A DNA stretch of 64,000 nt from an uncultured Desulfobacteraceae bacterium (GCA_964580575.1 CAZOLJ010000004.1:30354-94353), one strand, 5' to 3'; positions 3,846 through 34,961 are shown, numbered from the stretch's first letter. Notes: generated from the sequence alone by a model not told the origin. A program made the numbers and translations.

Positions 3846-4523
3846 TTGGCGGTTGTCCAGTCCATACTCAAATACCGTTTGGTTCCTTTGTGTTATTATC
3901 TTTTGCGTCTGTACCTCTCTTTTCTGAGGATCAGGGTTGTCGGTGAAGACGCCGCCCATAAGCATTTTACGAACTACGGCCGCCTGATCGCTGCGGTCTG
4001 GCATCAACGGTTTCTCCCTGCTCTGGCGTATGTCACCAAATTCAGGAACTTCAAACCCATTGTGATGATCAGCCAGAGCAGCGACGGTGAGCTGATTGCT
4101 TCTCTTGCCGAAAAGCTCGGGCTTGTTCCTGTGAGGGGATCCAGCACTCGAGGGGGAAGAGAAGCCTTGATGGCCATTCTGAGAGCCCTTAAGAAGAACC
4201 CTGGCGTCGTCCATATTGTGGATGGGCCCACAGGGCCCAAGGGGGTTGTCAAGCCGGGGCTCATGGCTATGGCTCAGGTCACCGGTGCACCTGTTTTCCC
4301 GGTGATCATATCCGCTGAAAAGGCCTGGGTAATGAAAAGCTGGGATCGATTCCTGGTGCCCAAGCCCTTCAGCACAGTGACCATCCGGTGGGGGGACCCC
4401 TTCCCAGTTCCCAGGGGAACGCGTCCCGAGCAGTTGGAGGTCCTACGAAAAGAAGTGGAAACCCTCCTGCTGAAGGCTCATGCAGAGGCGGACCTGCAAT
4501 CAGGGTGGCCTCAACCCCTCTGA
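3846..4523 (+). CDS. DUF374-type lysophospholipid-acyltransferase-superfamily protein, copy 1
   Basis: 225 aa. Conserved block WHQRFLPALAYV...ISQSSDGELIA...GLVPVRGSSTRGG...VDGPTGPKGVVKPG. The start is TTG in the track, with no in-frame ATG nearby. Confidence 0.8.
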   Translation: MAVVQSILKYRLVPLCYYLLRLYLSFLRIRVVGEDAAHKHFTNYGRLIAAVWHQRFLPALAYVTKFRNFKPIVMISQSSDGELIASLAEKLGLVPVRGSSTRGGREALMAILRALKKNPGVVHIVDGPTGPKGVVKPGLMAMAQVTGAPVFPVIISAEKAWVMKSWDRFLVPKPFSTVTIRWGDPFPVPRGTRPEQLEVLRKEVETLLLKAHAEADLQSGWPQPL

Positions 4524-4592
4524 CATGTACGTTCGGTTTCGGCTGAAGGCCTGCGTTGGCAGTATTCATTCAGTAAGGAAAGGGGATTGGGT

Positions 4593-4856
4593 ATGGCTCA
4601 AATGACACAAGATGAGGTCTTTGTAAAAGTGAGAAAGGTCGTGGCGGAGGTGTTCAAGGTGGAGGAGAGCCGGATCTCTTTGCAGACAAAGTTCATAGAT
4701 GATCTCAAAGCTGAGTCTCTGGATATCATTACCTTGCTCATGGAGTTTGAGGAAGCCTTTGACAAGAGGATCCCGGACGAGGATGCGGAAAAGCTGCTCA
4801 GCGTGCAAGATGCCGTGAAATACATCATGGCCATGGAAGACGACGCCAAGGCTTAG
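4593..4856 (+). CDS. discrete acyl carrier protein
   Basis: ~87 aa. FIDDLKAESLDIITLLMEFEEAF is a canonical ACP helix II with the Ser in (D/E)SLD. ATG at 4593 is preceded by AGGAAAGGGG; the track start 4587 is TTG. Confidence 0.9.
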   Translation: MAQMTQDEVFVKVRKVVAEVFKVEESRISLQTKFIDDLKAESLDIITLLMEFEEAFDKRIPDEDAEKLLSVQDAVKYIMAMEDDAKA

Positions 4857-4860: not shown

Positions 4861-6225
4861 ATGAAGAAACGAATCGTCATCACCGGATTGGGAGTCCTCA
4901 CGGCGATCGGGCGGAATCCCGATGAGTTCTGGAAAAGCTGTTTGGAAGCGAAGACCAGAGTCGAACGAATCCCTGACCACTGGCTTTATTACGGGGATTT
5001 CCATTCCCAGATCTGGTCCCCTCTTCCTTCGATCGACTATTCCTCCTATGGGATCGGTCGCATCGAGGAAAAACAACTCGACCCATCGAGTCTCATTGCC
5101 ATTGCCTGCAGTTTTCAAGCCCTGGATTCGGCGGGCTTGGAGTACACCAAGGTGGACCAGAAGCGAAACACCTACTCCCTGCCCTCCGTGGACAAGGAAA
5201 GGGCCGGCGTGTTCATGGGGACAGGGATTGCAGGCCTGGGCACCTTTGCCTCCTGCTACAGCTACCATCTCCTCATGCGCCAAAAGGAAGCCCTTGCCAA
5301 GGCAAGCGCCCAGCTCGGAGACCACCCTGCGGGACAGATCCTCAAGCAGGTCCAGGATCGAATGCATTATCCCAGGCGCTTTAATCCGTTTGCAGTGTCG
5401 ATGACCATGCCCAATGCCTGCTCCGCCAGCATAGGCATCAAGTTCAGCCTCCACGGGAGCAACAACGCCTACTGCGCGGCTTGCGCCTCGGGAACAGTGG
5501 CCATCGGTCACGGGTTCAAGGCCGTGAAATCCGGGGAACTGGATGTCGCTCTCGTGGGCGGCGTGGAGCATCTGAGCGACGAGTATGGCGGCATCTTCGC
5601 AGGCTTTGACGCAGTGAGGGCTCTGGCCTACAACAATGAGGAACCGGACAAGGCGAATCGCCCTTTTGACAGGGACCGTACCGGTTTTCTTTTCAGTGAA
5701 GGAGGAGGGGCGGTCTTTGTCATTGAAACTCTGGAGCACGCCCGGAACCGAGGCGCAAAGATCTATGCCGAGATCGTGGGCTACGGCGAGACATGCGACG
5801 GCTTCAACATCATGATGATGGAAAGCAGCGGCAGCCAGATCACGAGAATGCTCCAACTCGCCTTTGCCGATGCAGGCCTGTCTGCAGAAGAAATCGATTA
5901 CATCAACGCCCATGGAACCGGGACGCGTCTGAATGACGAGACGGAGACCGCGGTGATTGAACAGGTTTTCAGGAAGAACGTCCTCATCAATTCCACCAAA
6001 TCTCTCATCGGTCATACCCTGGGAGCTTCCGGAGCCATAGAGGCGCTGGTCACCGCTCTGAGTATTCATCACAAGACCACCCACGTGTGCCGGAATCTCG
6101 ACCATCCCATGAAGGATCTGAATTTCGTCACCCGGGTGGACTTCTACCCTATCCGCACCGGCCTCTCCCAGTCCTTCGGCTTCGGCGGCCACAACGCCGC
6201 CCTCATCCTCCGTGAGTATCGGTGA
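4861..6225 (+). CDS. discrete beta-ketoacyl-ACP synthase (KAS I/II-like, extended N-terminal region)
   Basis: 454 aa. MKKRIVITGLG start. Cys in YCAACASGTVAIG, His in INAHGTGT, His in IGHTLGASG, end FGFGGHNAALIL. 4 nt after the ACP stop. Confidence 0.9.
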   Translation: MKKRIVITGLGVLTAIGRNPDEFWKSCLEAKTRVERIPDHWLYYGDFHSQIWSPLPSIDYSSYGIGRIEEKQLDPSSLIAIACSFQALDSAGLEYTKVDQKRNTYSLPSVDKERAGVFMGTGIAGLGTFASCYSYHLLMRQKEALAKASAQLGDHPAGQILKQVQDRMHYPRRFNPFAVSMTMPNACSASIGIKFSLHGSNNAYCAACASGTVAIGHGFKAVKSGELDVALVGGVEHLSDEYGGIFAGFDAVRALAYNNEEPDKANRPFDRDRTGFLFSEGGGAVFVIETLEHARNRGAKIYAEIVGYGETCDGFNIMMMESSGSQITRMLQLAFADAGLSAEEIDYINAHGTGTRLNDETETAVIEQVFRKNVLINSTKSLIGHTLGASGAIEALVTALSIHHKTTHVCRNLDHPMKDLNFVTRVDFYPIRTGLSQSFGFGGHNAALILREYR

Positions 6226-6355: not shown

Positions 6356-6384
6356 TTGACACATAGGGTCACTCTCGATATACT
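6356..6384 (+). promoter_or_regulatory. near-consensus sigma70 promoter candidate upstream of DUF374 copy 2 / megasynthase
   Basis: TTGACA (6356-6361), 17-nt spacer, TATACT (6379-6384). About 50 nt upstream of 6436. Confidence 0.45.
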
Positions 6385-6435: not shown

Positions 6436-7119
6436 TTGGGTATTTGGCAAGCCCGTTACCTTCTCCTCTATCGGTTGATACCGGTGTGTTACTATTTGCT
6501 TCGCTTGTACCTCTCTCTTCTGAGGATCAGGGTGGCTGGCGAAGAAATCGCACTCGGGTGTCTGGCAGATTATGGACGGGTGATCGTGGCCGTGTGGCAT
6601 CAACGTTTTCTACCGGCTCTGGCCTACGTCACCAAATTCAGGAATTTCGAGCCCATTGTCATGATCAGCCAGAGCAAAGATGGAGAGCTGGCCGCGAGGC
6701 TCGCGCAACGTCTAGGACTTTTACCGGTGAGAGGGTCCAGCACGAGAGGTGGAGAGACGGCTCTGGCAGCCATTTTGAAGGCACTGAAAAAAAATCCGGC
6801 CGTCATTCATATCGTGGATGGTCCCACAGGGCCAAAGGGTGTCGTGAAACCCGGGCTCATCAGTATGGCCCAGATATCGGGTGCGGTCATCCTGCCGGTC
6901 TTTGTATCCGCTGACAGAGCCTGGATTATGGGAAGCTGGGACCGATTCCTGGTCCCCAAACCTTTCAGCAAGGTGACCATCGAATGGGGTCCACCCCTCG
7001 TCGTGCCCCAGGAACTGGATCCGGCCCAAAATGAGGAATTCAGGGAGGAGATCGAGCAGAGACTTTCTGAGGGCTATGCCCAGGCCGATCTGAGTTCAGG
7101 CTGGGACCATCCCCTTTAA
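6436..7119 (+). CDS. DUF374-type lysophospholipid-acyltransferase-superfamily protein, copy 2
   Basis: 227 aa, colinear with copy 1. About two-thirds identical by eye, e.g. WHQRFLPALAYVTKFRNF(K/E)PIVMISQS and HIVDGPTGPKGVVKPGL. TTG start in the track. Confidence 0.8.
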   Translation: MGIWQARYLLLYRLIPVCYYLLRLYLSLLRIRVAGEEIALGCLADYGRVIVAVWHQRFLPALAYVTKFRNFEPIVMISQSKDGELAARLAQRLGLLPVRGSSTRGGETALAAILKALKKNPAVIHIVDGPTGPKGVVKPGLISMAQISGAVILPVFVSADRAWIMGSWDRFLVPKPFSKVTIEWGPPLVVPQELDPAQNEEFREEIEQRLSEGYAQADLSSGWDHPL

Positions 7120-7163: not shown

Positions 7164-10100
7164 ATGCCCAGAACGCAATCAAACTCTGTTCTCGCTTTCC
7201 TGTGGAGACCCAATGAGATCACTCCTGCTGTGGTCGACACGGCCCGCCGGACCTCCACTGTGGCCCTATTCGACATCAGTAAGGATCGCACGGGAAACCT
7301 CGCAAAGCCCCTCAAGGATGCAGGGGCAAAAGATGTGAAGATCTCCGCCGAACACTTCATGGAGCCGGCAATCGAGAGATTTCTCCAGGACTCCAATGTG
7401 TCCACCCTTTGGGTGGAGTTTCATCCGGCCTTTGGACCCTGTCCAGCCGAGGCTTTTCTTGAGCGAGTGAAGGAGTTGTCGGCCCGGATCACCTGCATTC
7501 CGATCAGCGGGGATCCGGATTTTCTCAGCCTCGCCCTTCAGTCGAAGTGGCATGCCCAGGCCGTTGCCATCAAGGGCTCCGAAGCGTCAGGCTTTGTTGG
7601 CAATGAAAGCGCAGGCGTCCTCTACTCCACCTTGAGGGAAATGGCGGGCCAGGGGGCTCAAAAGTCTGGTTTGATCCTCTGGGGCGGCGTGGCCACGCCC
7701 GAGGCGGCCGCAGCCTTTTTGTGCACCGGCGCAAGGGGTATCGTGTTCGAGAGCCTCCACTGGCAGACAGACTTGGTGTCCGCAAACCCGAACCTGAAGG
7801 AGCGCCTCTCCAGAGTGCGTCCCGAACACAGCGCCGTCGTGGGGACGACCCTCGGGGTCTCCTGCCGCTTCTTTGATAAGGGCAACTCCGTGGCCGTCAA
7901 GGAATTGAAGCAATACGCAGACACTCTGCTCGACCGCGAGATTGCGGATCAGGACCGCCGCGCCTTTGCCCGTAAGGTCGAGGAGAGAGTCGTGCCGGCG
8001 CTCGAAAGGGAGCTGGGCCGCCAGGAACTTGTTTTTCTGGGACCTGAGGCGGCCTTCGCAGAGGCATTCGCCGGACGGTTCGGCCGCTCTACCCGTCAGG
8101 CCATAGAGGGCTTCGCCAGAGAAGTGTCGAGCCTCTGCCGGCAGGCCCCACCCAAACGGGACGCTCTCGTGGAAAACTCTGCTGCCAAGTCCCTGGGGAC
8201 CCGTTACCCTTTCATTCAGGGAGCCATGACTTGGATCAGCGACATCCCGGAGTTCGCCCTGGCTGTGTCCGAAGCAGGGGGTCTGCCTACCCTGGCCCTC
8301 GGTGTGAAAACCCGCGTGGACATCGAGCAGGACCTGGCTCGGCTCAAGGAAGTCATGGGCGAACACCCTTACGCAGTCAACTTTGTCGCCCTTCCGGAAA
8401 ACCCTCGTCTGGAAGAACAGCTCGCCTGGATCGATCAAACCCGCCCGCCCTTTGCGGTCATTGCAGCCGGGGATTCCTCCTATGCAGCGCGTCTTCAGGA
8501 GAGGGGAATCCAGGCAATCTACGTTGCTTCGAGCGAGGGTCTTCTCCGCATGGCATTCGAGGCCGGCGTGCGTTTTGTCGTCCTGGAAGGGAACGAGTCC
8601 GGCGGGCACGTGGGGGAGCATTCCACCCTGACCCTGGCGCAGATGGCCCTGGAGCTCAGGCGCAGAGAGCCCGAACTCTTCCGCGATCGGCACCTGGTGC
8701 TCGCAGGCGGCATCTTCAACCGGGAGAGCGTTCTCAGGGCTTTCATGCTGGGTGCCGATGCTGTGCAGATGGGCACGGCGTACCTGGCCACCCGGGAGAT
8801 TGTCTCTACACGCGCACTGAGCCCCTTGTATCAGCGCCTGATCCTAAACTCACGGCCCGGCATGACCGCGGTTTCGGGCGAAAGCGTCGGTCTCAGGGTT
8901 CGGTCTCTCAAAACCCCTAAAGTGGAGGCGATCCGCACCCTGGAGAGAGAATGGGCGTCGGGCCGGCACGACGAGAGCTCTTTTCGGATGCGCCTGGAGG
9001 CTCTGGGTGCAAACAGCCTGCTTGTCGCTGCGAGGGGGATCGATCATCCCCGCGGCCGAGTCATGGACGAAGAAAGCTGCCTGCGGGAAGGACAGTTCAT
9101 GAGCGGTTCCATATCCGGCGCACTCCATCGTGTGCTCACTGTCTCCGAGTTTCACCGCGACCTGGTTGAAGGGCCTCTGGAGCTCACTCTCCCGGAATGG
9201 GAGGAGAGGCCCGCGCCGGCGCCTGCTGCCCGGTCGAGGACAAGGGAAGACCGCGAGCGATTGGCTGTCACCGGTATGGCCCTGGTCAATTCCCTGGGCA
9301 ACAGCCCGAGGGAGATCTTGGAAGCCTCGGTTGCCATGAGGAGCGGAATCGCCACAGTGCCTCCTTCCCGGTGGGACCACAGCCTGTACTACGATCCCGA
9401 TCCCCGCGCCAGAGGCAAGACCTACTGCAAGGTTGGCGCTTTCCAGAACCTCAGCGTCTCGCGCAAGGAGTTGGGCATTGCGCCTCAGGATTTCCGCTCC
9501 ATGGCCGATTCCACCCGATTGACCCTCTGGCTCGCCGAAGAGGCCATCAAGCAATCAGGCCTGCTGGAGTCGGGCATTCCCAGGGAGCGCATCGGGGTGC
9601 TCATTTCCCAGAACTCGGGAGAGGGTGCGGCCACGATCACGGATCTGGTCTTTGATGTGAATTACCACGACATCATCCGCTCCTTGAGGGAGATCATCCC
9701 CACGACCCCGGAACTGGAAAAGGCCATCAGGGAAAGAATCCAAGCAGGCCGCCTCACCGTGGACGACACCACCTTGCTCGGCCGTCTCAATTGCGCGGCC
9801 GGGGGCTTTGTGTGCAACCGGTACGGGTTAAGGGGCCCGAGCTACGCGGTCTCCGCTGCGTGCGCCACCAGCCTGGTGGCCCTCTTCAACGCGCTCCAGA
9901 TGATCCGAAACGACATCCTCGACGCAGCCGTTGTGGGAGGCGGAGAGGAGTTCCTCCACCCCTCCCATTACCTCGAATTCTCCGCGCTCAAGGCCCTGGC
10001 CGGGCTCTCGGGCGTTGAAGGGCCTGCCCAGGAGAGCAGCCGGCCCTTTGATGCGCAGCGCGACGGCATGGTCCTCGGCGAAGGAGGAGGCATGATCGTT

Positions 10101-13100
10101 GTGGAGAGGGAGTCGGTCGCGAAAAAGCGCGGTGCCCCTATTCACGCCTACATCACCGGGATAGGAGCGAGCAACAATGATCGGGGCATGGTGGAGTCCC
10201 TGGCCGAGACCCAGTTGATTGCCCTTCGGGGCTCCTTCCGGGATACGGGTTACGGTCCCGAGCAGGTGGACATGGTGGAATGCCATGCCACGAGCACGGT
10301 TCAGGGTGACGTGGAGGAGGTCAAGGCCCTCAAGTCCCTGTTCCCATCTTCTAAGCGGACAGTGCTCACCTCTTTCAAGTCCCAGATCGGCCACACCCTC
10401 GGCGCCTCCGGCGTGAACAGCCTCATCAGAGGGGTGTGCGCCATGCAGGCGGGACTCTTCCCGCCCACCCTCAACTACAGGACGCGGGATCCCCAGGTCG
10501 ATCTTGAGGCAGGGGGCTTTCATGTTCTTCTTCAGCCCGAGGAGTGGCCGCAACCCCCGGACCGGCCCAGGCGTTTGGAGGTTAACGCCTTTGGTTTCGG
10601 CGGCGCCAATTATGTGGTCCAGCTGGAGGAGTGCCGGGAGGCTTCCGGCCGGGTCATGATCTCAGCGCCCCTCACAGAGAGACTCGAACCCCCGAAGCCT
10701 TCTGGTCAGGCCGCTCGGCCGTCCATCCAGGGCGTTTCGTTTTTCCGCGCCCAGGTGGCAGGCCGGTCCTATCGCTTAGGGGTGGTGGCTTCCGGTGAAA
10801 AAGAAGCCCGGTCCAGAGTGGAAGCCCTGCCCCCTGCTGAAAACGGGGGTATCTTCTCGGACAAGTCCCTACGCACCATGGCCCGCCAGGGCATCTTCGC
10901 TGCACCGGCCGACGATCCGCAAAAACCCCTGGCCTTCATTTTCACCGGCCAGGGGTCCCAGTATGCAGGCATGAGCAAAGAGCTTTACGACACCTTCCCG
11001 GAAATCCGGAGGTGGATGGACAAGATTGCGGCTGTGGCTGAATTCGATCTCCTGGACCTCCTTTTCCATGCCTCGGTGGAAGACCTTCAGAAGACACGAT
11101 GGCAGCAGCCCGCCCTCTACACCATGGAGTACGCCATGGTGCAGTACTTGATCGCCATGGGCGCAAAACCACTGGCCATGGCCGGACACAGCCTTGGAGA
11201 ACTCGTGGCCATGAGCACCGCCGGGATCTTCACCTATGACGACGGCTTCCGCATCGTGAACAAGCGGGCCCAGTGCATGGACAAGGCAAGCGGGCTCCGG
11301 GGCGACCCAGGCACCATGATCGCGGCGGACGCGCCCATGGACTACCTGGAACAGAAAGTGGCCGGCTGGGAAAACGTGTACTTCACCAACTACAACTCGC
11401 CCCACCAGGTGGTCTTGGGCGGTGACACCCAGCCCTTGTTGGCTCTTCTGCAAGAGATCAAAAGTGAGGGTTACCGGGCCACCCAGCTCAAGGTGAGCAT
11501 GGCCTTTCACTCGCCCATCATGAAGGTGATCCATGACGAGATGGCTGCCTTTGTGTCGGACATTGCCTTTCACCCGGCCCGGATTCCGGTGATCTCCAAC
11601 ACCACCATGAAGCCTTACCCGAATGATCCGGACCAGATGCGCCGGATCCTCATGGCCCACCTCGAATCCCCGGTGCACTGGATGCAGAACGTGAGGACCC
11701 TCTGGGAGGATTTCAGCATCAGAACCTTTGTGGAGATCGGCCCGGCAGACACACTCTGCAGCCTTGTGGGACAAACCCTGGACAAGCCTCTATGCGTCCC
11801 TACCTGCATGCCCGAGGCAGAAGCCCAAACCTATCGGTCAGGGGTGGCCCAACTCCACGCTCTGGGCCATCTGGAACAGGAGGAGATCCCCCTGACGGAA
11901 AAGACGGACCAGTTGGCCGTCCCATCCCCTGCGCCTGCGATCACGGTCCGTTCCACTTCCGAAGACCGGCTGGCTGCCATTGTGCAGCGTGAGATAAACG
12001 CTTTTGTCCTGAAGTCCTTCGGAGAGTATATCAAACCGCTTGTCGTGGCCGCGATCCGCCGGGAACTGGATCCAAGCTTCACGTTGGAAAGTCTGGACCG
12101 GAGCCTTGGGACTTTGCCTGTGGCCCCGCCCCTGCCCCAGGCCAAACCCTTGGCAAAGGCCGAGGCCCCTGCGGCCCTGCCGAGCCGGGAGGCGGAGGCC
12201 AAGGGGCCGAAAGAAGCGGTGGATTATGTGGAGCAAATGATCCGGATCATCATGAATGCCACCGGGTATGAACGGGACGAGATCGAGCCTGACATGGACA
12301 TCCGGCAGGACCTTGCCATCCGTTCCAGCCGACTGCCCGTGATCATGGACGAGGTCGAGCGACGGTTCAACATCCCCGTCAATGTCGAGGATTTCGTGGG
12401 ATTGCGCACGGTGCGGGAGATCGCGAACTGCATCGAAAAGCTGGCAGGCGGACCCGGCAAAGAAGCCCCGGCCGCACAACCGTTCCAGCAAGCCCCTCCT
12501 GCCGCCGCCCCCAAGAACTCGGCGGCCCCATCCGCCGAGGAGGAGGCACGTCCAATTGAATCGATCAGGCGAATGGTCTTAGAAGAAGTCGCGCTCCCTC
12601 ATGGCGCCGTGCACCCGCTCACGCCGGCGCCGGGACAGGAGGTGGCGGTGCTCAGGATGTCTCCCGGCTCCACCCTGGCTGCTGACGTGTCCCGCCACCT
12701 GGAGGGAAAATGGAAAGTCAAGTCGCTGTTCTTGGACTATTCGGGTCAGGGGGACGGCAGCGCCTTTGATCTGCGCGCTTCCAAGGGCGCACAAAAGGCG
12801 GAGCAGCGGCTCAAAGAAGCTCGTTCCCTGGCAGGGCTTGTCCTGGTGCTGGAAGGCGAGTTGCGCTCCGTTCTGTCTGGTGCAGAAGACATTGCAGCTT
12901 TCCTCTCCGGGTTCTTCCGCTGTCTGAAGGCCGTGATGAATTCAAAGAGCAAACCCTTTTGCCTGGTTCTGCTCCGGGGGGTTCAACCCGAAACCCCCGG
13001 AGCCGTGACGGCGGAAGGCATCCTGGGCATGTTCCTGGCTGCGGCCCATGAGTACCCGTCGGTGCTGTTTCGAAGTGTTTCTCTGGACGCCAACACGGAT

Positions 13101-15077
13101 TTCCCGAGCGCCATGGACCGCGCCCTGGATACCGGGAACCCGATCATCCAGTGGACCTACCACGGCCAGGAGGCCTTCTCCATCAAGGCCTCTCATGCTC
13201 CTCTGTCCTTGACCGGCAGGTCCGGGCTTGAACTGGGGCCAGAGGACGTGGTGGTGATCTCAGGCGGCGCCAAAGGGGTCACCTGGCACATTGCCCGGGC
13301 CCTGGCGGCCTTCAAACCCCGGATCGTGCTGCTGGGGCGGACCGAACTGAACCCTGCAGCGTCCTACAGCGCCCTCCGCAACGCCGAAGCTCCTGCTGAA
13401 GGCGCCTTACGTCGCCTATTCAAAAAGAAAGAGCCTGTCCCAAAGGCCGACCAACCTGAGAGTCAGACCTCGAGCGCCCTTGCAGGTTTGGACATTGCGC
13501 GCAACGTGTCCCGGCTCTCCGCTCTTGGGATCAAGGTCTCCTACCTTTCCTGCGACGTGGCAGATCCCCGCAAGGTGGCACAGACGCTCGACCAGGTGGT
13601 GAAACAGTATGGCAGGATTGACGGGATCATTCACGGGGCCGGTATCATCCGGGACAGCTTCCTGGAGTTCATGACGCCCGAGGATTTCACCAAGGTCATG
13701 GAGGTCAAGCTCCTGGGGGCATGGAACCTTTACCGCGCCTCCAAGGACCGCGGCCTGCGGTTTTTCGCAGCCCTCTCCTCGCTTGTGGCGATCCAGGGCA
13801 ATGTCGGCCAGGTCAACTACTGCAGCGCAAACCGATCGCTTTCCGCCATGCTGCGATCGTGGAGCGTCTCCCACAAGGGCCTGGTGTCAAAAGCCTTCAT
13901 GCTGCCGCCCATCGAGGGCACCGGCATGGCTGATGACCCGGAGGTCAAGGCTCTCATGAAGCTCAAAGGGTTGGAGTCCGCCTTTGTGCACGCAGACGAG
14001 TTCGCCCAGATTTTCTGCCGCGAGCTGTTCCTGGGGCCGGCCCAGCAGCCTTGGGTGATCCTGGCCCGCACCTTTCCGTCCGTCAAGAAGACCATGGTGG
14101 AAGCGAAGGAATCGAGCGAGGACAAGGCGAGCCCATGTGCCGGGGGAGTCCGTTTGGAGCAGAAGGACCTCCCTATGATCGGGACCGTGGAAACCCTGGA
14201 CCTCAAGGCCGGCGAACTGGTGGCCAAACGGACCTTTTCGCGGGCTTACGACCTCTGGATCGAAGATCACAAGCCTTTCAAGCTCCTGAAGCACCCTTTA
14301 GTTTCAGGGATCATGGCCGTCGAGACCTTTCTGGAGGCAGCCCATCTGCTCTATCCGCATCTGAATGTGCTAGGTGTGCGGAGGCTGAACTTCAAGGACA
14401 TTCTGGAGTGTCCTCCGGACACAGGGCGGGAGGCCCGTATCCTCTGTCGGAGAGAGGAGGATCCCAGTCACGATGTCCGCTGTCACGTCGAGCTCTCCAG
14501 TGCAGGCCTCTCTCCTTCGGGTCGCCTTTTGGACACCTGGTCCACGAACTATCTTGGACAGGTCATTCTCGGGCCCCGGATCACCCCTCTTTCCCCCTTA
14601 CCTGAGTTCGCCATAAATGCGAAGGACCTGGATACGCGTCCCATGGACGCCCATGAGATCCAGGAGAGCTATGAAAATCGCACCGGCCTTCGTGGACGCT
14701 ACCGCGTCCTTGAGAAGATCCACGGCACAGGGCCAGGAATCATGAAAGGAGCCATGGTTTACAAGGACCAGGAGGACATGGCCGGTTTGGGCCCTGCCCG
14801 TTACCACTACTCGCCCTATCTGCTGGAAGCCCTGATGCACCTTTTCGCGTTCTACGCTGCCCTCCGGCAGGAGAGTGGATCCTCGGAGGTGCTTCCCGCG
14901 GGTATGGAGGAAATGCGTTTCACCCGGCCGGCCCGGAATGGAGAGCGCTTCACCCTCGAAGCCAGGCTCCGCTCCCGTGACGATCAGGGCTTCACGTGGG
15001 ACGCCCGTGCCTTGGACGAGAGCAACACCCCCATCATGCAGGTCCTTTCCATGCGCATGAATCGGTTCAGTCAGTGA
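7164..15077 (+). CDS. type-I FAS/PKS-like megasynthase: pseudo-ER, ER (NMO/PfaD/FabK-type), KS, AT, ACP, KR, DH
   Basis: Single ORF; first ATG at 7164, track TTG at 7122. Domains (nt): degenerate NMO-like TIM barrel ~7239-8141 (AIKGSEASGFVG). ER ~8184-9191 (YPFIQGAMTWISD, VLEGNESGGHVG, GADAVQMGTAYL). KS ~9258-10631 (SAACATS with Cys codon 9861-9863, ECHATS, GHTLGASG). AT ~10923-11831 (FIFTGQGSQYAGM, GHSLGE with Ser 11190-11192, MAFHSP). ACP ~12213-12446 (DLAIRSSRL). KR ~12564-14051 (ISGGAKGVT, Tyr in VNYCSAN 13818-13820). DH ~14154-15074 (LKHPLVSGIMAVE, His 14292-14294). Confidence 0.95.
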   Translation: MPRTQSNSVLAFLWRPNEITPAVVDTARRTSTVALFDISKDRTGNLAKPLKDAGAKDVKISAEHFMEPAIERFLQDSNVSTLWVEFHPAFGPCPAEAFLERVKELSARITCIPISGDPDFLSLALQSKWHAQAVAIKGSEASGFVGNESAGVLYSTLREMAGQGAQKSGLILWGGVATPEAAAAFLCTGARGIVFESLHWQTDLVSANPNLKERLSRVRPEHSAVVGTTLGVSCRFFDKGNSVAVKELKQYADTLLDREIADQDRRAFARKVEERVVPALERELGRQELVFLGPEAAFAEAFAGRFGRSTRQAIEGFAREVSSLCRQAPPKRDALVENSAAKSLGTRYPFIQGAMTWISDIPEFALAVSEAGGLPTLALGVKTRVDIEQDLARLKEVMGEHPYAVNFVALPENPRLEEQLAWIDQTRPPFAVIAAGDSSYAARLQERGIQAIYVASSEGLLRMAFEAGVRFVVLEGNESGGHVGEHSTLTLAQMALELRRREPELFRDRHLVLAGGIFNRESVLRAFMLGADAVQMGTAYLATREIVSTRALSPLYQRLILNSRPGMTAVSGESVGLRVRSLKTPKVEAIRTLEREWASGRHDESSFRMRLEALGANSLLVAARGIDHPRGRVMDEESCLREGQFMSGSISGALHRVLTVSEFHRDLVEGPLELTLPEWEERPAPAPAARSRTREDRERLAVTGMALVNSLGNSPREILEASVAMRSGIATVPPSRWDHSLYYDPDPRARGKTYCKVGAFQNLSVSRKELGIAPQDFRSMADSTRLTLWLAEEAIKQSGLLESGIPRERIGVLISQNSGEGAATITDLVFDVNYHDIIRSLREIIPTTPELEKAIRERIQAGRLTVDDTTLLGRLNCAAGGFVCNRYGLRGPSYAVSAACATSLVALFNALQMIRNDILDAAVVGGGEEFLHPSHYLEFSALKALAGLSGVEGPAQESSRPFDAQRDGMVLGEGGGMIVVERESVAKKRGAPIHAYITGIGASNNDRGMVESLAETQLIALRGSFRDTGYGPEQVDMVECHATSTVQGDVEEVKALKSLFPSSKRTVLTSFKSQIGHTLGASGVNSLIRGVCAMQAGLFPPTLNYRTRDPQVDLEAGGFHVLLQPEEWPQPPDRPRRLEVNAFGFGGANYVVQLEECREASGRVMISAPLTERLEPPKPSGQAARPSIQGVSFFRAQVAGRSYRLGVVASGEKEARSRVEALPPAENGGIFSDKSLRTMARQGIFAAPADDPQKPLAFIFTGQGSQYAGMSKELYDTFPEIRRWMDKIAAVAEFDLLDLLFHASVEDLQKTRWQQPALYTMEYAMVQYLIAMGAKPLAMAGHSLGELVAMSTAGIFTYDDGFRIVNKRAQCMDKASGLRGDPGTMIAADAPMDYLEQKVAGWENVYFTNYNSPHQVVLGGDTQPLLALLQEIKSEGYRATQLKVSMAFHSPIMKVIHDEMAAFVSDIAFHPARIPVISNTTMKPYPNDPDQMRRILMAHLESPVHWMQNVRTLWEDFSIRTFVEIGPADTLCSLVGQTLDKPLCVPTCMPEAEAQTYRSGVAQLHALGHLEQEEIPLTEKTDQLAVPSPAPAITVRSTSEDRLAAIVQREINAFVLKSFGEYIKPLVVAAIRRELDPSFTLESLDRSLGTLPVAPPLPQAKPLAKAEAPAALPSREAEAKGPKEAVDYVEQMIRIIMNATGYERDEIEPDMDIRQDLAIRSSRLPVIMDEVERRFNIPVNVEDFVGLRTVREIANCIEKLAGGPGKEAPAAQPFQQAPPAAAPKNSAAPSAEEEARPIESIRRMVLEEVALPHGAVHPLTPAPGQEVAVLRMSPGSTLAADVSRHLEGKWKVKSLFLDYSGQGDGSAFDLRASKGAQKAEQRLKEARSLAGLVLVLEGELRSVLSGAEDIAAFLSGFFRCLKAVMNSKSKPFCLVLLRGVQPETPGAVTAEGILGMFLAAAHEYPSVLFRSVSLDANTDFPSAMDRALDTGNPIIQWTYHGQEAFSIKASHAPLSLTGRSGLELGPEDVVVISGGAKGVTWHIARALAAFKPRIVLLGRTELNPAASYSALRNAEAPAEGALRRLFKKKEPVPKADQPESQTSSALAGLDIARNVSRLSALGIKVSYLSCDVADPRKVAQTLDQVVKQYGRIDGIIHGAGIIRDSFLEFMTPEDFTKVMEVKLLGAWNLYRASKDRGLRFFAALSSLVAIQGNVGQVNYCSANRSLSAMLRSWSVSHKGLVSKAFMLPPIEGTGMADDPEVKALMKLKGLESAFVHADEFAQIFCRELFLGPAQQPWVILARTFPSVKKTMVEAKESSEDKASPCAGGVRLEQKDLPMIGTVETLDLKAGELVAKRTFSRAYDLWIEDHKPFKLLKHPLVSGIMAVETFLEAAHLLYPHLNVLGVRRLNFKDILECPPDTGREARILCRREEDPSHDVRCHVELSSAGLSPSGRLLDTWSTNYLGQVILGPRITPLSPLPEFAINAKDLDTRPMDAHEIQESYENRTGLRGRYRVLEKIHGTGPGIMKGAMVYKDQEDMAGLGPARYHYSPYLLEALMHLFAFYAALRQESGSSEVLPAGMEEMRFTRPARNGERFTLEARLRSRDDQGFTWDARALDESNTPIMQVLSMRMNRFSQ

Positions 15078-15136
15078 GATGATGGAAACCCATGAGAGTT
15101 GATACAAACGAAATGAGCCCTTTTGCAATAGAACGC

Positions 15137-15284
15137 GCCCCCTCCCCTCTCCCCTCTCCCCCGGCTTGGGGTCTATGTCAGAATGTCATTTCGAGGCGAA
15201 AGCCGAGAAATCCTGGTTCTTCACAAAATCTGCCCCTCCCCGATTGCGACACAGCCTCTTGGGTGAGAAGGCGGGGTGAGGAGG
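15137..15284. repeat. GC-rich REP-like composite (C-rich arm, small hairpin, G-rich arm)
   Basis: gccccctcccctctcccctctccccc (15137-15162) and gggtgagaaggcggggtgaggagg (15261-15284) flank the hairpin atttcGAggcGAAAgccGAgaaat (15188-15211). This is the sequence type that yields spurious ...SPLPSPP... peptides. Confidence 0.5.
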
Positions 15285-15295
15285 CTATACACACC

Positions 15296-15877
15296 TTGCA
15301 GCCTCTCGGGTTCCGGGGCTCTGTATTGTTTGCATCTGCTCCACCCGTGCATGGATCAGGGCTGCACCTGGCCCTTGGCCTGCTCGGGGCTCTGGCGCAG
15401 CTTGATTCCCGCTGGAGCGGGACCGGAAACGAGATGACCCTTCACAAAAGCGCTCTGGGAGCTCCATTTCTTCTTGTAAGGGACAGGGAAGGACCCTCCG
15501 TGTCCTTCAGCCACGGCAAGGGGCGGCTCTGGGCGGCCATGTCCGGCAAGGGAAATGTCGGCATTGACGTTGCCTACCCGGAGGAATTTGCGGGGACCTA
15601 TCCTCTTCACCGAGCGTTCAGTGCCGAAGAACTGGAGTGTGCTGAAGCCCTTTGTCCTGACGACAAAGCCCGGGGCGCAGCCCTAATGTGGGCCGCAAAG
15701 GAGGCGTCGGTCAAGGCGACCGGGGCCGGCTTCAACTTCTTTGATCCCCTGGAAGTGCGAGTGGGGGCTCCCCTTGTCAGGGAACAGGGGATCCTCTTCG
15801 AGGTGTTGGCGGACCGACCCATTTCCATCTGGGTAAGAACAGAGGGCAGGGGCTGGCTTTCCGTGGCATTGGCTTAG
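15296..15877 (+). CDS. 4'-phosphopantetheinyl transferase (short form)
   Basis: Motifs GAPFLLV, SFSHGKGRLWAAMS, VGIDVAYPEE and WAAKEASVKATGAGF. The track ORF starts at 15092 but its first ~68 codons are the REP-like repeat. TTG 15296 follows GAGGAGG; GTG 15347 is also possible. Confidence 0.75.
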   Translation: MQPLGFRGSVLFASAPPVHGSGLHLALGLLGALAQLDSRWSGTGNEMTLHKSALGAPFLLVRDREGPSVSFSHGKGRLWAAMSGKGNVGIDVAYPEEFAGTYPLHRAFSAEELECAEALCPDDKARGAALMWAAKEASVKATGAGFNFFDPLEVRVGAPLVREQGILFEVLADRPISIWVRTEGRGWLSVALA

Positions 15878-16013: not shown

Positions 16014-16113
16014 TCCTCCCCCTCGACGTGGGAGGTAAGGTGGGGGTGGACAAGGCTGCATGAAATGCCATCGCTTTACCCCCCTCCCCTGTCCCTCCCA
16101 CCAGGGGAGGGAA
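16014..16113. repeat. GC-rich REP-like hairpins
   Basis: cctccc(N9)gggagg at 16015-16035 and tccctccc-acca(g)-gggaggga at 16092-16112. Same C/G-tract style as 15137-15284. Confidence 0.5.
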
Positions 16114-16213
16114 ATTTCTTGTAGAAGCCTTCTTGCACACCGGATCAGTCGAACGTATCCGGGTCCTCCACCAGAGGCGCAGAGGATATTGAACGCTAAC
16201 GACTGGGGATAAG

Positions 16214-17107
16214 ATGATAGACGAGATCCTTTACAGGCTCATCCGTTTGACCATCCGCATGATGTCCCATATTTACTACCCCCTCGCGCAGCATATCGGA
16301 AGGGGATGGGGGACGATCGCTTATCTCATACCCATGAGCAGGAAAAAAGTGGCTCTGGAGAACATCAGGCAAAGCTTTCCTGCCCTCACGAAAAGGGAAG
16401 CAAGAAGGCTCCTCAGAAGGGTGTACCTGCACTGCGGCCAGATGTTCTTCGAAATCCCTCACATCTTTCGCATGACCCACAACACCCTTGACCGCTACGT
16501 GACCTTGGACGGAGAGGAAAATGTGGTCAACGCCTTGAGCAGGAACAAAGGTGTGTTTTTTCTTACCGCCCACTTCGGGAATTGGGAGTTCCTGTGCGCC
16601 GCAGGTTCCCTCATGACCGGGAACCTAGCCGTCATAGCCAGACCCGTTGATTTCAAGCCTTTTGATCGCGTGATCGCCGAGATCCGCACCCTTTTCGGCA
16701 CCGAGGTGATTCTCAAGCAAAAGGCCCTGAGGAGGGTTCGGGGTGCGCTGAGAGAAAACAAGCTCATCGGCATTCTGCTGGATCAGAATGTGGACTGGTA
16801 TGAAGGCATTTACGTTCCCTTCTTCGGCCGGTGGGCCTGCACAAACAAAGGACTGGCAATACTCGCGGTGATGACCGGAACGCCCGTGGTGCCCGCTTTC
16901 CCGGTCAGGCAGAAAGACGGACGGTACCGTATCATCTTTGAAAAGGAAGTGGAACTCCGGCAAACGGGAGACAGGACGAGGGACATCGAGGAGAACACCG
17001 AACTATTCACAAACATCATCGAGAAGTATGTGAGAAAATACCCTGACCACTGGTTCTGGTTTCACAAGAGGTGGAAGACGAAAAACTACTGTCCCCTACC
17101 CCGATAG
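16214..17107 (+). CDS. LpxL/HtrB/MsbB-family (lipid A secondary) acyltransferase
   Basis: 297 aa. FLTAHFGNWEF is the HX4(D/E) acyltransferase motif; ends DHWFWFHKRWK, typical of the family. ATG start. Confidence 0.8.
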   Translation: MIDEILYRLIRLTIRMMSHIYYPLAQHIGRGWGTIAYLIPMSRKKVALENIRQSFPALTKREARRLLRRVYLHCGQMFFEIPHIFRMTHNTLDRYVTLDGEENVVNALSRNKGVFFLTAHFGNWEFLCAAGSLMTGNLAVIARPVDFKPFDRVIAEIRTLFGTEVILKQKALRRVRGALRENKLIGILLDQNVDWYEGIYVPFFGRWACTNKGLAILAVMTGTPVVPAFPVRQKDGRYRIIFEKEVELRQTGDRTRDIEENTELFTNIIEKYVRKYPDHWFWFHKRWKTKNYCPLPR

Positions 17108-17240: not shown

Positions 17241-18758
17241 ATGGAAAAATTCATCGGTGCAGTGGATCAGGGCACAACGAGTACTCGGTTCATCCTTTTT
17301 AATCACAGCGGCGAGATCGTCGGAGCAGAGCAAAAGGAGCACAGGCAGATCTTCCCAAAATCCGGGTGGGTGGAGCATGACCCAATGGAGATCTGGAGCA
17401 ACACACAGCACGTCATTCGCGCCGCCCTAGCGCGAGCGGGAATCCAAGGTTTGGACCTGGCTGCCATCGGTGTGACGAACCAGCGTGAGACCACGGTGGT
17501 GTGGGACAAGAAAACGGGGCAACCTTACTTCAACGCCATTGTGTGGCAGTGCACGCGCACCCACGAGATTTGCCGGGACTTGATCACCCATTATGGGCAG
17601 GAAGCCTTTGAAGCCAAGACCGGCTTGCCGGTTGCAACCTATTTTTCAGGACCCAAGCTTAGGTGGATTCTGGACAGCGTTCCTGATGCCGCGCGTGCCG
17701 CCCGGAAAGGCGACGCGCTTTTTGGAACGGTGGACACTTGGCTCATCTGGTGGCTCACCGGAGGGCCCCACGGCGGAGTGCATGTCACGGATGTCACCAA
17801 TGCGAGCCGCACCATGCTCATGGACCTGGATGCCCTTGAATGGGAGGAGAGCATTCTCCGGGCTCTGGATATCCCCAGGCCCCTGCTGCCCAGGATCGTT
17901 CCTTCCATCGACAGAAGTGTTTGGGGATATACCTCAAAGGACGGCCCTCTGGGACACCTTGTGCCTGTCTGTGCTGCTCTGGGGGATCAGCAGGCGGCCC
18001 TGGTGGGGCAAACGTGCTTTCAGAAGGGAGAGGCCAAGAACACCTATGGGACAGGGTGTTTTCTCCTCATGAACACCGGTTCCGTGCGCGTCCGATCCAG
18101 GCACGGATTGATCACGACGGTGGGGTACCGAATCGATTTGCAAGCCCCCGTGTATTGTCTGGAAGGCTCTGTGGCCGTGGCAGGGGCACTCGTTCAGTGG
18201 CTGCGCGACAACCTGGGGATCATCGCAAAGGTGCCCGAGGTCGAGGACCTCGCCAGGACTGTAGACGACAACGGAGGGATCTACTTTGTTCCGGCCTTCT
18301 CAGGGCTCTTTGCTCCCTATTGGCGTGCGGATGCAAGAGGCGTGATCGCCGGACTCACGCGCTTTGTGAATAAGGGGCACATGGCGCGTGCCGTGCTGGA
18401 AGCGAGCGCCTTTCAAACCAAAGACATCGTTGAAAGCATGAACCAGGACTCAGGCGTTGCCTTGCGAAGCCTCAAGGTGGATGGGGGCATGGTAACCAAT
18501 GAACTTCTCATGCAGTTCCAGGCGGACCTGTTGAACGTGCCCGTCATTCGCCCCAAGATCACGGAGACGACAGCGCTCGGGGCGGCTTATGCCGCAGGAC
18601 TCGCTGTAGGGTTCTGGCCGGATCTTGAAAGTCTTCGCCGGAACTGGACCATGGATAAAACGTGGCTTCCGGCCATGCCGCAACAAGAGAGGGGGAAAAG
18701 ATACGGCGAATGGAAAAAGGCCGTTGAAAGAACATTCAGCTGGGTTGACGGGAAGTGA
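17241..18758 (+). CDS. glpK: glycerol kinase
   Basis: 505 aa. [46 protein letters not shown]. Confidence 0.95.
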
Positions 18759-20101: not shown

Positions 20102-20107
20102 AAGGTT

Positions 20108-24986: not shown

Positions 24987-24993
24987 GGTCGCC

Positions 24994-32557: not shown

Positions 32558-32663
32558 GTGACGAACGCTCTCATGAAGCTCCTGCCCTGAATCACACGGT
32601 TCAAGAACTTCGGAGCAACGGTAGTTTACCAGGGATTGAGAGGCAAAACAATTGAAAACTCGC

Positions 32664-34226: not shown

Positions 34227-34328
34227 ATTCGACGATCCTCTTTATATATTGAGATCAGCAACCCCTGCTCCGGGCGGTAAAGGCGGAGCGGTCTGCTGGA
34301 TAAAACCTGCACTCAGGGCAGTCCTTGG

Positions 34329-34560
34329 AGGAACGGCTAAGAGAGGAAAAAGACTCAGGAGGGTAATAAAGCGACTGGGGGAAACAGCGAGAGGTCAAAA
34401 TCCCTTGGCCTCAGGGTCAAGAGATTCCAAACACACAGCCTTATATCGTCAATGCGTCTAGCATCAAGCATGTTGGCATGTTCTGAACGATATGTAAAAA
34501 GGCTCGTTTCCATCGTGCCTTACGAGTCCACCTGTTCTTTTCTGACCGCTTCCATTCCTC
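34329..34560 (-). ncRNA. candidate structured RNA (6S RNA-like or rny leader) in the zapA-rny gap
   Basis: On the minus strand, GAGGAAUGG...AGAAAAGAACAGG (from 34560) can pair with CCUGAGUCUUUUUCC...CCGUUCCUC (to 34329). That gives an irregular stem of roughly 20 bp enclosing ~170 nt, including an 8-bp inner hairpin (AUAUCGUU/UGACGAUAU). No ORF here. The topology is asymmetric, so 6S assignment is weak. Confidence 0.25.
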
Positions 34561-34608
34561 AATCTCAAGCGGGTCATATTTGCCTCGACAAAGCCGGAAA
34601 AAGAGGCC

Positions 34609-34902: not shown

Positions 34903-34961
34903 GAAACTCCCTGGAAAAACCGCTTGAGGCAGAACAAAAACTCGCGTCAACCCATGTTATT

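Follow-up and report, generated by a model that had tools for sequence, protein, structure and literature searches.

Gene content of the locus and integrity of the megasynthase gene

We analyzed a 64,000-nucleotide stretch of DNA from an uncultured Desulfobacteraceae bacterium (GCA_964580575.1 CAZOLJ010000004.1:30354-94353), which in its entirety is referred to here as the window. Its plus strand encodes a megasynthase of 2,637 amino acids (aa) in which two tandem enoyl reductase (ER)-like units, here called ER' and ER, precede ketosynthase (KS), acyltransferase (AT), acyl carrier protein (ACP), ketoreductase (KR), and dehydratase (DH) domains. The open reading frame (ORF) is free of stop codons from a TTG at position 7122 or an ATG at position 7164 up to position 15077. 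The ATG at 7164 is favored as the start because the N termini of homologs read "M......P.LAFVWR", and all of the residues of the synthase are numbered from it. The gene and its domains are as follows.

7164..15077, plus strand: megasynthase with the order ER'-ER-KS-AT-ACP-KR-DH, 2,637 aa (uninterrupted ORF; domain order from Pfam and NCBIfam; 110 homologs aligned over their full length)
7164..8183, plus strand: ER', aa 1-340, (beta/alpha)8 unit, FabK-like but degenerate and predicted to be catalytically dead (profile search, hhalign, and AlphaFold 2 model)
8184..9203, plus strand: ER, aa 341-680, FabK-type flavin mononucleotide (FMN)-dependent enoyl-ACP reductase domain (Pfam, NCBIfam, motifs, and Foldseek)
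9246..10643, plus strand: KS, aa 695-1160, with the triad Cys900-His1041-His1077 (Pfam, 1.4e-44 and 4e-25; triad invariant)
10911..11813, plus strand: malonyl-type AT, aa 1250-1550, with GHS1343LGE, R1368, and MAFHS (Pfam and NCBIfam)
12216..12458, plus strand: the single carrier domain, aa 1685-1765 (Pfam PP-binding at aa 1692-1757, 8e-6)
12561..14063, plus strand: KR with its structural subdomain, aa ~1800-2300, the catalytic part being aa 2030-2235 (Pfam KR, 9.7e-33)
14121..15074, plus strand: DH of the polyketide synthase (PKS)-type double-hotdog fold, aa 2320-2637, with His2369 and Glu2555 plus H/Q2559 (Pfam, profile search, AlphaFold 2 model, and Foldseek)

This order had been proposed in the original prediction from motifs read off the translation, all of which are indeed present there. 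It was borne out by Pfam (NMO, KS, AT, PP-binding, KR, and PKS_DH_N/PS-DH along the chain), by NCBIfam (FabK, FabF, FabD, and PfaA-type matches in the same order, all below their equivalog cutoffs), by profile searches against PDB, and by two AlphaFold models. A search of 5.8 billion proteins recovered >120 relatives, of which 110 are 2,550 to 2,800 aa long, cover 100% of the query at identities of 48 to 88%, and display an identical set of Pfam domains. These full-length homologs, all with the N-terminal ER fusion that the original prediction had proposed to search for, derive from four independent sources, namely, assemblies of JGI, ENA, NCBI, and Logan. When 111 sequences were aligned with MAFFT, conservation was seen throughout the synthase, residues 1 to 340 and the junction between ER and KS included; the counts given below for catalytic residues are out of these 111 sequences.

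The same data bear on the idea that the long ORF is an artifact, in which an assembly error or a frameshift has fused separate ER and PfaA-like genes. A few homologous copies, found in long-read metagenome-assembled genomes (MAGs), are indeed split by frameshifts; however, all of these lie in contigs with nanopore- or long-read-style names and look like sequencing errors of those assemblies that leave the copy in the window unaffected. With 110 homologs from four sources showing 100% coverage and the same Pfam set, and with the ER-KS junction itself conserved in sequence, we regard the artifact as having a negligible probability, and the refutation that the original prediction had envisaged along these lines fails. 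The G+C content of the gene is 0.62, versus ~0.55 in its surroundings, which led us to consider horizontal transfer. This was rejected, since the G+C content at third codon positions (GC3; 0.746) is inside the range of the housekeeping genes of the host, and there is thus no sign of a recent transfer. In existing annotations, the family goes by the name "SDR family NAD(P)-dependent oxidoreductase."

A degenerate unit and a FabK-type reductase in tandem

In ER, the Pfam NMO domain is matched at aa 344 to 592 (1.9e-27) and the NCBIfam FabK model TIGR03151 is matched with an E value of 6.9e-42; the score of 143.8 bits stands against a cutoff of 453.1, and the domain is not an equivalog of TIGR03151 FabK. 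The conserved motifs of ER are "QGAMTW", "EGNE(A/S)GGHVG", "AGGI", and "QMGT", and H482 is present in 111/111 sequences. The residue proposed to be catalytic in FabK, PfaD, and ERs of their kind is the His of motif III (xEAGGH), and a Trp in motif I distinguishes FabK among the ERs with a TIM barrel (the descriptions of motif I and of the phosphate-binding stretch used for this comparison are from PMC13311796). Foldseek searches of PDB with the ER'-ER model likewise recovered FabK structures first (2z6i, 7l00, 9pl0, and 3bo9), with target-normalized template modeling (TM) scores of 0.86 to 0.89, root mean square deviations of 2.2 to 2.7 Å, and identities of 26 to 28%, whereas the target-normalized TM scores against PfaD were just 0.45 to 0.55. 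Because of the FabK-type Trp in motif I and of TM scores far above those for PfaD, we consider the reductase to be FabK-like, and the description of the protein in the original prediction as a PfaD fused in front of a PfaA-like module has to be revised in this respect.

The first 340 residues are without any Pfam match, and as a single sequence, they recovered FabK structures from PDB weakly (E = 0.004). A profile built from 13 sequences of this unit matched FabK structures more firmly (9pl0, E = 3e-6; 5gvj, 1.4e-4; 2z6i, 6.5e-4), and the alignment of the ER' and ER profiles with hhalign (probability, 93.6%; E = 2e-7; 165 columns) placed "KGsEAsGFVs" of the former opposite "EGnEaGGHVG" of the latter. 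The two units thus represent an internal duplication. Motif III of ER' takes the form K-G-x-E-A-x-G-F/L, and in 111/111 sequences, Phe or Leu occupies the position of the catalytic His. As read from the sequence, ER' also lacks motif I (GAM) and the "QMGT" FMN-phosphate stretch, both of which are kept by ER. Hence, by its sequence, ER' is a conserved pseudoenzyme for which no catalysis is predicted. We found no published description of a dead ER' in the literature searched.

An AlphaFold model of aa 1 to 690 (mean predicted local distance difference test [pLDDT], 84.7; predicted TM score [pTM], 0.90) consists of two runs of alternating strands and helices, and the alternating beta/alpha elements of the ER' part have a pLDDT of ~90. 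The high pTM of this two-domain model indicates a mutual arrangement of ER' and ER that is predicted with confidence to be fixed. FabK/PfaD-type TIM-barrel ERs act as homodimers, and ERb/ERc of thraustochytrids form a heterodimer; because enzymes of this kind work as dimers, the simplest role that may be proposed for ER' is that of an in-chain partner of ER. Relative to FabK, PfaD, DfnA, and ERb/ERc, with which ER shares the FMN-binding TIM barrel and motif III, xE(A/S)GGH, in addition to the motif I Trp of the FabK type, the synthase is thus distinguished by two units fused in tandem, the first of them minus the catalytic His and two FMN-binding motifs.

The KS, AT, carrier, KR, and DH domains

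The KS is matched by the Pfam ketoacyl-synt model at aa 698 to 985 (1.4e-44) and by the model for its C-terminal part at aa 994 to 1105 (4e-25), and C900, H1041, and H1077 are each invariant in 111/111 sequences. It is PfaA/PKS-like according to NCBIfam, and its sequence matches in PDB are KS-AT didomains of modular PKSs. For the AT (Pfam Acyl_transf_1, aa 1258 to 1548, 2.1e-47), the best family match is TIGR00128 FabD (4.2e-58), and it is on this ground that we classify it as malonyl type, as had been suspected from its motifs; S1343, R1368, and "MAFHS" are invariant in 111/111 sequences. In the KR, K2182, S2206, and Y2219 are found in 111/111 sequences and N2223 is found in 109/111.

A single carrier domain had been claimed, and only one was found even with the HMMER filters turned off. 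Its motif at aa 1716 to 1725, D-L-A-I-R-S1721-S-R-L-P, is invariant across the 111 sequences, and we take S1721 to be the phosphopantetheine attachment site from a gap-free alignment by eye to Escherichia coli AcpP. The residue before the phosphopantetheinylated Ser is Asp in nearly all carrier proteins, while it is Arg in the carrier of the synthase. This odd motif may explain why a dedicated phosphopantetheinyl transferase (PPTase) gene travels with the synthase (see below).

The C-terminal region is matched by Pfam PKS_DH_N/PS-DH at aa 2346 to 2636 (PS-DH, 3e-11). A search of PDB with the last 338 aa as a single sequence recovered no match, and a family profile was needed: a profile of 22 sequences matched the DH of CurJ (3kg8; E = 4.9e-6) across both halves of the double hotdog. 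An AlphaFold model of aa 2320 to 2637 (pLDDT, 88.2; pTM, 0.88) recovered with Foldseek only PKS-type double-hotdog DHs as its top matches (PsoA, CurF/J/K, and MAS-like; E, ~1e-14; TM score, 0.72 to 0.82). The catalytic His had previously been assigned to "HPLVSGIMAVE", but the residue in question, H2377, is His in just 80/111 sequences, which raised the suspicion of a dead DH. This was rejected: H2369, in "W-x-x-D-H-(K/R)-P-F...P", and E2555 are both invariant, and in the alignment to CurJ, H2369 falls on the catalytic His and E2555 falls on the catalytic Asp of the DxxxQ motif. With FabK-like units at the N terminus and a PKS-type DH at the C terminus, the profile searches assigned neither end of the protein to a fold differing from that proposed. 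In canonical type I fatty acid synthases (FASs) and PKSs (e.g., animal FAS and MAS-like PKS), an ER of the medium-chain dehydrogenase/reductase (MDR) family lies between DH and KR, in the order KS-AT-DH-ER-KR-ACP; the synthase departs from this order, yet the fold of its DH is of the PKS type.

Taken at the level of conserved residues across the 111 sequences, all of the activities for a saturating cycle appear competent, in keeping with the claim that a complete reducing set resides on one chain. The protein stops at the last hotdog strand, and the Pfam searches detected no thioesterase (TE), reductase, or condensation release domain after the DH, as had also been noticed, nor any cyclase, methyltransferase, or other tailoring domain in the synthase.

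The PfaA-like sequence and the shared KS-AT-ACP-KR-DH order, together with an ER of the TIM-barrel rather than the MDR type, invite comparison with the PfaA and PfaD components of polyunsaturated fatty acid (PUFA) synthases, and the PfaA model TIGR02813 is the second-best NCBIfam match of the protein (442.9 bits). Related Deltaproteobacteria moreover possess Type I pfa-like clusters linked to olefins. On these grounds, the synthase might be regarded as a PfaD-PfaA fusion, that is, a Pfa-type component that makes polyunsaturated chains or hydrocarbon precursors. This is very improbable, inasmuch as the TIGR02813 score is far below the cutoff of 1,010.1, there is one ACP in place of tandem ACPs, the ER is FabK-like and not PfaD-like, and neither the cluster nor the scanned ORFs (≥300 aa) of the window include a KS-chain length factor (CLF) protein or a FabA-type second DH (PfaC/PfaB). 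Furthermore, with every round reducible and with no isomerase, the enzyme would have no route to cis double bonds.

Gene neighborhood of the synthase in the window

The genes and signals that flank the synthase are as follows.

880-1761, 1867-2406, and 2561-3649, all minus strand: YicC-DUF4416-rfaE block (syntenic in the closest relative)
2561-3649, minus strand: rfaE domain I, heptose-7-phosphate kinase of the lipopolysaccharide (LPS) core (Pfam/NCBIfam)
3846-4523, plus strand: DUF374/LpxJ-family gene, second copy (69% aa identity to the copy at 6436-7119)
4587-4856, plus strand: discrete ACP, 89 aa (NCBIfam, 85.7 bits versus a cutoff of 71)
4861-6225, plus strand: discrete FabF-like KS, 454 aa (Pfam, 1.4e-37 and 2.8e-31)
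6356-6384, plus strand: sigma-70-like promoter, TTGACA-17-TATACT, 11/12 (consensus match only)
6436-7119, plus strand: DUF374/LpxJ-family acyltransferase (Pfam DUF374, 4e-22; ends 45 nucleotides [nt] before the synthase ATG)
15092-15877, plus strand: Sfp/HetI-type PPTase (15 nt past the synthase stop; Pfam ACPS, 7e-11)
16092-16122, plus strand: terminator-like hairpin (16092-16112; 8 bp, 6 GC) with a T-rich tail, after the PPTase gene (consensus match only)
16214-17107, plus strand: homolog of the LpxL/HtrB-family lipid A secondary acyltransferases (Pfam Lip_A_acyltrans, 2.1e-50)
17241-18758, plus strand: glycerol kinase (Pfam/NCBIfam)

The gene directly upstream of the synthase (78 bits versus a Pfam cutoff of 26.8) belongs to DUF374, which is the LpxJ family of acyl-ACP-dependent late (3' secondary) acyltransferases of lipid A. 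The activity of LpxJ of Rickettsia typhi is abolished by mutation of W60, H61, D86, D132, W172, or D173 (PMC6148475), and counterparts of these critical residues can be discerned by eye in both DUF374 copies of the window ("VWHQ" for the W-H pair, "DGE" and "VDGPTGP" for the two single Asp residues, and "SWDRF" for the W-D pair; the first two read "AVWHQ" and "SKDGE" in the copy adjoining the synthase). At the DNA level, the two copies form repeats of 73 to 77% identity whose spacing is 2,596 nt, and the ACP and KS genes lie between them; a sister locus whose synthase is 88% identical has one DUF374 copy only, and the pair in the window is therefore a recent, lineage-specific duplication of the tandem type. 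The discrete KS scores 361 bits with TIGR03150 fabF, below the cutoff of 494, and its Cys ("AACASG") and the two His residues ("NAHGTGT" and "GHTLGASG") are present in its translation. The PPTase, a weak match to the NCBIfam HetI model, displays the motifs "VSFSH", "GIDV", and "WAAKEASVK". The LpxL-like protein is matched by the NCBIfam lipid A lauroyl acyltransferase models at 3e-53, below their cutoffs. The promoter and hairpin matches bracket the DUF374, synthase, and PPTase genes, although promoter-type matches are no more numerous in the region than is expected from shuffled sequence.

Immediately upstream of this lipid cluster, rfaE, as a gene of the LPS core, strengthens the envelope-related character of the locus. 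Elsewhere, the window has the content of an ordinary chromosome, with genes for ATP synthase, PolA, RNase G, MreBC, PBP2, RodA, YidC, and MnmE. Pfam scans detected no further fab genes in the 64 kb, no chalcone synthase-type gene (type III PKS, as in the arsB/arsC partners specific to Type P) was found among the scanned ORFs of the window, and scans for tRNAs and Rfam families found none anywhere in it. Elsewhere in the window, we observed a gene for a 1,017-aa protein with two BcrAD/BadFG ATPase units and DUF2229, of the coenzyme A (CoA)-enzyme activase type (24994-28047, minus strand), after which a radical SAM gene comes next (28248-29162, minus strand); a CHASE2-adenylate/guanylate cyclase gene (52543-54801, plus strand); a B12-binding radical SAM gene (55830-57203, plus strand) that lies ~40 kb from the synthase with no obvious link to it; a local dip in G+C content to 0.486 at 34001-36000; and long ORFs without a Pfam match at 32652-34280 (plus strand, 542 aa), 23628-25019 (minus strand, 463 aa), and 19445-20965 (plus strand, 506 aa).

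Relationship to ArsA and other secondary lipid synthases

Neither the exact domain string nor PfaD fusions in Deltaproteobacteria turned up in literature searches; precedent was found in the supplementary table of Shulse and Allen (2011). There, proteins with the string ER-KS-malonyl acyltransferase (MAT)-ACP(1-3)-KR and an adjacent PPTase are catalogued as secondary lipid synthases of Types M to P and S. Their Table S1 lists ArsA of Azotobacter vinelandii (YP_002800097) with ER-KS-MAT-ACP-KR, its PPTase being ArsD (Type P); Parvularcula with ER-KS-MAT-ACP-KR; Frankia, Renibacterium, Chitinophaga, Dinoroseobacter, and Gloeobacter with ER-KS-MAT-ACP2-3-KR plus KS-AT-PPTase (Types M to O); and Desulfobacterium autotrophicum with ER-KS-CLF-AT-KS-ACP3-KR plus a PPTase (Type S). 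The synthase, when set against these published strings, has the N-terminal TIM-barrel ER fused to KS-MAT-ACP(n)-KR by which Types M to T are recognized. The same authors separate Types M to T from true PUFA synthases by the P1b' motif of the PPTase (hShxH versus FNxSH), and "VSFSH" of the PPTase in the window fits the former.

ArsA provides the characterized precedent. Like the synthase, it has an ER at the N terminus in fusion with KS-MAT-ACP-KR, just one ACP, and a PPTase of the P1b' class encoded by its own gene next door. In papers citing Miyanaga et al. (2008), ArsA is described as making the C22-C26 (in another account, C23-C25) fatty acids of the phenolic lipids of cysts, that is, long saturated chains for a specialized envelope lipid, and as being, like the synthase, without a TE, the chains staying on the ACP and passing directly to the type III PKSs ArsB and ArsC. 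Since ArsA sets a precedent for all four features (an ER fused at the N terminus, one ACP, a PPTase encoded nearby, and no domain for release), the architecture is not new, and the view of it as unusual and noncanonical is not supported in light of the types catalogued in 2011. Differences are nevertheless apparent: the partners of the synthase are LpxJ/DUF374 and LpxL-type acyltransferases rather than type III PKSs, its hosts are genomes labeled as anaerobic Thermodesulfobacteriota and Nitrospirota rather than Azotobacter, and the domain string published for ArsA is annotated with neither a dead ER' nor a DH at the C terminus.

Types M, N, and O (Frankia, Chitinophaga, Dinoroseobacter, and Parvularcula) share with the synthase the N-terminal ER'-ER-KS-AT-ACP-KR layout but require a second multidomain subunit, whereas the family of the synthase has a small stand-alone PPTase only. 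Among the proteins resembling Types M to O in our collection, P0218, P0226, P0236, and P0253 terminate at the KR and lack the C-terminal DH that the synthase has in cis, and a KS-like/AT protein comes after P0236. With the ER' profile as the query, an exhaustive HMMER search recovered 427 hits, 79 of them at E ≤ 1e-30, and reached proteins of 2,500 to 4,000 aa at E values of 1e-12 to 1e-18. Domain hidden Markov models (HMMs) resolved the distant proteins among them into ER'-ER-KS-AT-ACP(n)-KR(-DH) and ER'-ER-KS-CLF-AT-KS-ACPn-KR-DH, i.e., the architectures of Types M to P and S. Thus, as far as profile matches can tell, the dead ER' seems to characterize the superfamily as a whole. Judged by analogy of domain strings, the family in the window is an uncharacterized ArsA-type branch of it, and the hallmarks of this branch are the fully self-contained chain, the tandem pseudo-ER/ER, and the coupling to LpxJ-type acyltransferases.

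An ER'-ER-KS-AT-ACP-KR-DH protein of 3,046 aa (P0256; NCBI accession no. MBD3192858.1) carries the label of a Candidatus Heimdallarchaeota MAG. Contamination or a binning error could lie behind this; alternatively, an Asgard archaeon could possess a fatty acid megasynthase of the bacterial type.

Phyletic distribution and conserved partner genes

We scanned one genome per GTDB species (185,579 species-representative genomes) with two ER' peptide patterns and recovered at least 263 confirmed synthase stretches in genomes labeled Thermodesulfobacteriota and Nitrospirota. Among the best 80 of the 263 stretches, the labels include Desulfobacterales, Syntrophobacterales, Desulfomonilaceae, Desulfobaccales, Syntrophorhabdales, Desulfatiglandaceae, and Geobacteraceae and, within Nitrospirota, Thermodesulfovibrionales and Dissulfurispiraceae. 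The best match to the synthase in the window among the species representatives has 68% identity.

A PPTase of the same type as that in the window lies directly downstream in 40 of the 47 loci with a complete gene and ≥900 nt of downstream sequence; an HMM search for a PPTase in the remaining 7 found none. A DUF374 gene lies directly upstream in 12/12 loci of the clade to which the window belongs. The DUF374-synthase-PPTase triad recurs amid completely different flanks, which is good evidence that the three work together. In the relative with 88% identity, YicC-DUF4416-PfkB is followed by ACP-KS-DUF374-synthase-PPTase-Lip_A_acyltrans, and the window is alike save for its extra DUF374 gene; the LpxL-family gene is adjacent only in these two loci and not in more distant relatives.

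Other clades display other partners. A 373-aa acyltransferase of the GNAT superfamily takes the place of DUF374 in 45 of the 77 loci that have upstream sequence, and it is often accompanied by ABC transporter, AsmA-like, phospholipase D (PLD)-type, and FemAB-like proteins. Conserved GNAT-type neighbors are seen in most clades without DUF374, including those of Nitrospirota (e.g., loci L042, L049, L050, L058, L064, L067, and L084; L071:2123-3241). Neither Pfam nor NCBIfam has a family for the 373-aa protein, and a conserved 281-aa neighbor is without any match; together, the GNAT, 281-aa, FemAB, ABC, AsmA, and PLD genes look like a complete "make, attach, export" module for a lipid. In relatives from Syntrophobacteraceae and Desulfomonile (L002:574-9724; L003:8692-9783 and 19254-20816), B12-binding radical SAM genes and a gene for an NAD_binding_4-type reductase adjoin the synthase, and those of Syntrophobacteraceae additionally have a gene for a 1,100-aa AMP-binding/PP-binding/aminotransferase protein (fatty acyl-AMP ligase [FAAL]-ACP-aminotransferase). 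These neighbors suggest further modification of the acyl chain in those clades, such as methylation, reduction, or formation of an amino lipid. We considered a B12-binding radical SAM partner for the locus in the window too and rejected it, given that such a neighbor is absent from its clade and that the window's own gene lies 40 kb off.

Two further readings of the synthase can be weighed against these contexts. The first is that it is an iterative PKS that makes a small, diffusible natural product. The best NCBIfam match of the protein is the generic "type I polyketide synthase" model NF045894 (525 bits), the PDB matches are to KS-AT didomains of modular PKSs, and the B12-radical SAM, reductase, and FAAL-ACP-aminotransferase genes that adjoin some relatives could tailor such a product. 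This is nevertheless quite unlikely: the NF045894 score is far below the cutoff of 1,740; the three reducing activities look competent, so a plain alkyl chain is to be expected; no TE, cyclase, methyltransferase, or other tailoring domain is present; the neighbors encode lipid acyltransferases, AsmA-like/ABC lipid transport proteins, and PLD; and the locus is in the core chromosome.

The second is that the synthase is the primary, housekeeping FAS and replaces, fully or largely, the dissociated type II system (FAS II). A complete reducing cycle with intact catalytic residues on one chain, the lack of other fab genes within the 64-kb window, and the location of the gene in a housekeeping region of the chromosome with a GC3 (0.746) within the host range would all accord with such a role. 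Shulse and Allen (2011), moreover, suggested it for two synthases, Type S of D. autotrophicum and Type M of Renibacterium; fabA/fabZ are missing from both D. autotrophicum and R. salmoninarum. For the family studied here, we consider it unlikely on several counts. Its distribution is patchy, with 263 stretches in 185,579 species-representative genomes, when the labeled phyla hold many more species. It is tied to dedicated acyltransferases and a PPTase, often along with lipid export genes, as is typical of specialized lipids, and an AcpP-like ACP and a FabF-like KS are adjacent. Finally, genes for lipid A are present (rfaE and the LpxL-like gene), and lipid A genes of the Raetz pathway require (R)-3-hydroxyacyl-ACP from a dissociated system.

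A proposed pathway for the synthase and its partners

The reading that we favor, with a probability of about 0.7, is that the synthase is an ArsA-like, iterative, fully reducing type I secondary lipid synthase whose chain is removed by partner acyltransferases, possibly onto lipid A. The dedicated Sfp-type PPTase would convert the "IRSS" carrier to its holo form. The AT would load malonyl units, and the KS, KR, DH, and ER would act iteratively to yield a saturated chain that is kept on the cis-ACP and that is probably long, by analogy with ArsA. ER' would do no chemistry but would pair with ER within the chain, in place of the second subunit of a FabK/PfaD-type homodimer. A trans-acting acyltransferase would then take the chain off the ACP, and the flanking acyltransferase and PPTase genes, which the original prediction had not mentioned, would thereby account for the absence of a release domain from the synthase. 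In the clade of the window, this acyltransferase would be the upstream LpxJ-family (DUF374) protein, possibly joined in the window and its closest relative by the LpxL-family enzyme encoded downstream; in other clades, the GNAT-superfamily acyltransferase encoded in the equivalent position would serve instead. The chain would likely be transferred to lipid A or some other glycolipid of the envelope, lipid A being plausible because of rfaE, the LpxL-like gene, and the known activity of the LpxJ family. Least certain is the part of the discrete ACP and FabF-like KS, which may supply a primer or extend the chain.

A comparable grouping of genes is known from Rhizobiales, where the cluster AcpXL-FabZXL-FabF1XL/F2XL-LpxXL builds a fatty acid of very long chain length and attaches it to lipid A. 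Dedicated genes for an ACP, KSs, a dehydratase function, and a late acyltransferase of lipid A are grouped there, and in the window, genes for an ACP, a FabF-like KS, and LpxJ-like and LpxL-like proteins surround the synthase, a likeness in gene content only. The window differs from it in having a type I megasynthase with a cis-ACP, an adjacent acyltransferase of the LpxJ and not the LpxXL family, one FabF-like KS with no second FabF, and no separate FabZ. We raise, as a tentative extension with the odds against it, the more specific scenario that the megasynthase hands its product from its own carrier to the LpxJ-type acyltransferase, to provide lipid A or another glycolipid of the outer membrane with a special chain, perhaps a very long one, as a type I counterpart of AcpXL/LpxXL, with ER'-ER as an intramolecular replacement of the FabK dimer.

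Several points weigh against the favored reading or parts of it. We infer chain length, saturation, and iteration from the domain content and from ArsA, and the kinship to ArsA is itself drawn from published domain strings. For the intramolecular ER'-ER pseudo-dimer, the evidence is the high pTM. The link to lipid A is drawn from gene adjacency and family names, and the DUF374 protein could acylate another acceptor. The LpxL-like gene, in addition to its restriction to the window and the closest relative, is separated from the PPTase gene by the hairpin. The neighbor statistics come from crude ORF calling and BLAST clustering, and the loci were retrieved with the ER' pattern, so that ER' is present in them by construction. 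Finally, other clades carry different partners (GNAT, B12-radical SAM, and reductases), and the end product is therefore probably not uniform across the family.

Significance for the anaerobic hosts

Since the general architecture has been catalogued since 2008-2011, the synthase does not represent a new kind of machine, but the annotation as an SDR family oxidoreductase hides the family to which it belongs. If the favored reading is true, the natural combination of a catalytic and a pseudocatalytic ER in one chain would help explain why TIM-barrel ERs need to be dimers, and the compact seven-domain enzyme, with its whole saturating cycle, would be usable for engineered fatty acid production. 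It would also provide a genetic handle on unexplained lipid biomarkers of anoxic sediments. For the organisms themselves, it would mean that anaerobes of a widespread, unstudied group (with genomes labeled Desulfobacterales, Syntrophobacterales, Desulfomonilaceae, Desulfobaccales, and Thermodesulfovibrionales) build part of their envelope lipid by means of a dedicated and self-sufficient megasynthase and not by FAS II.

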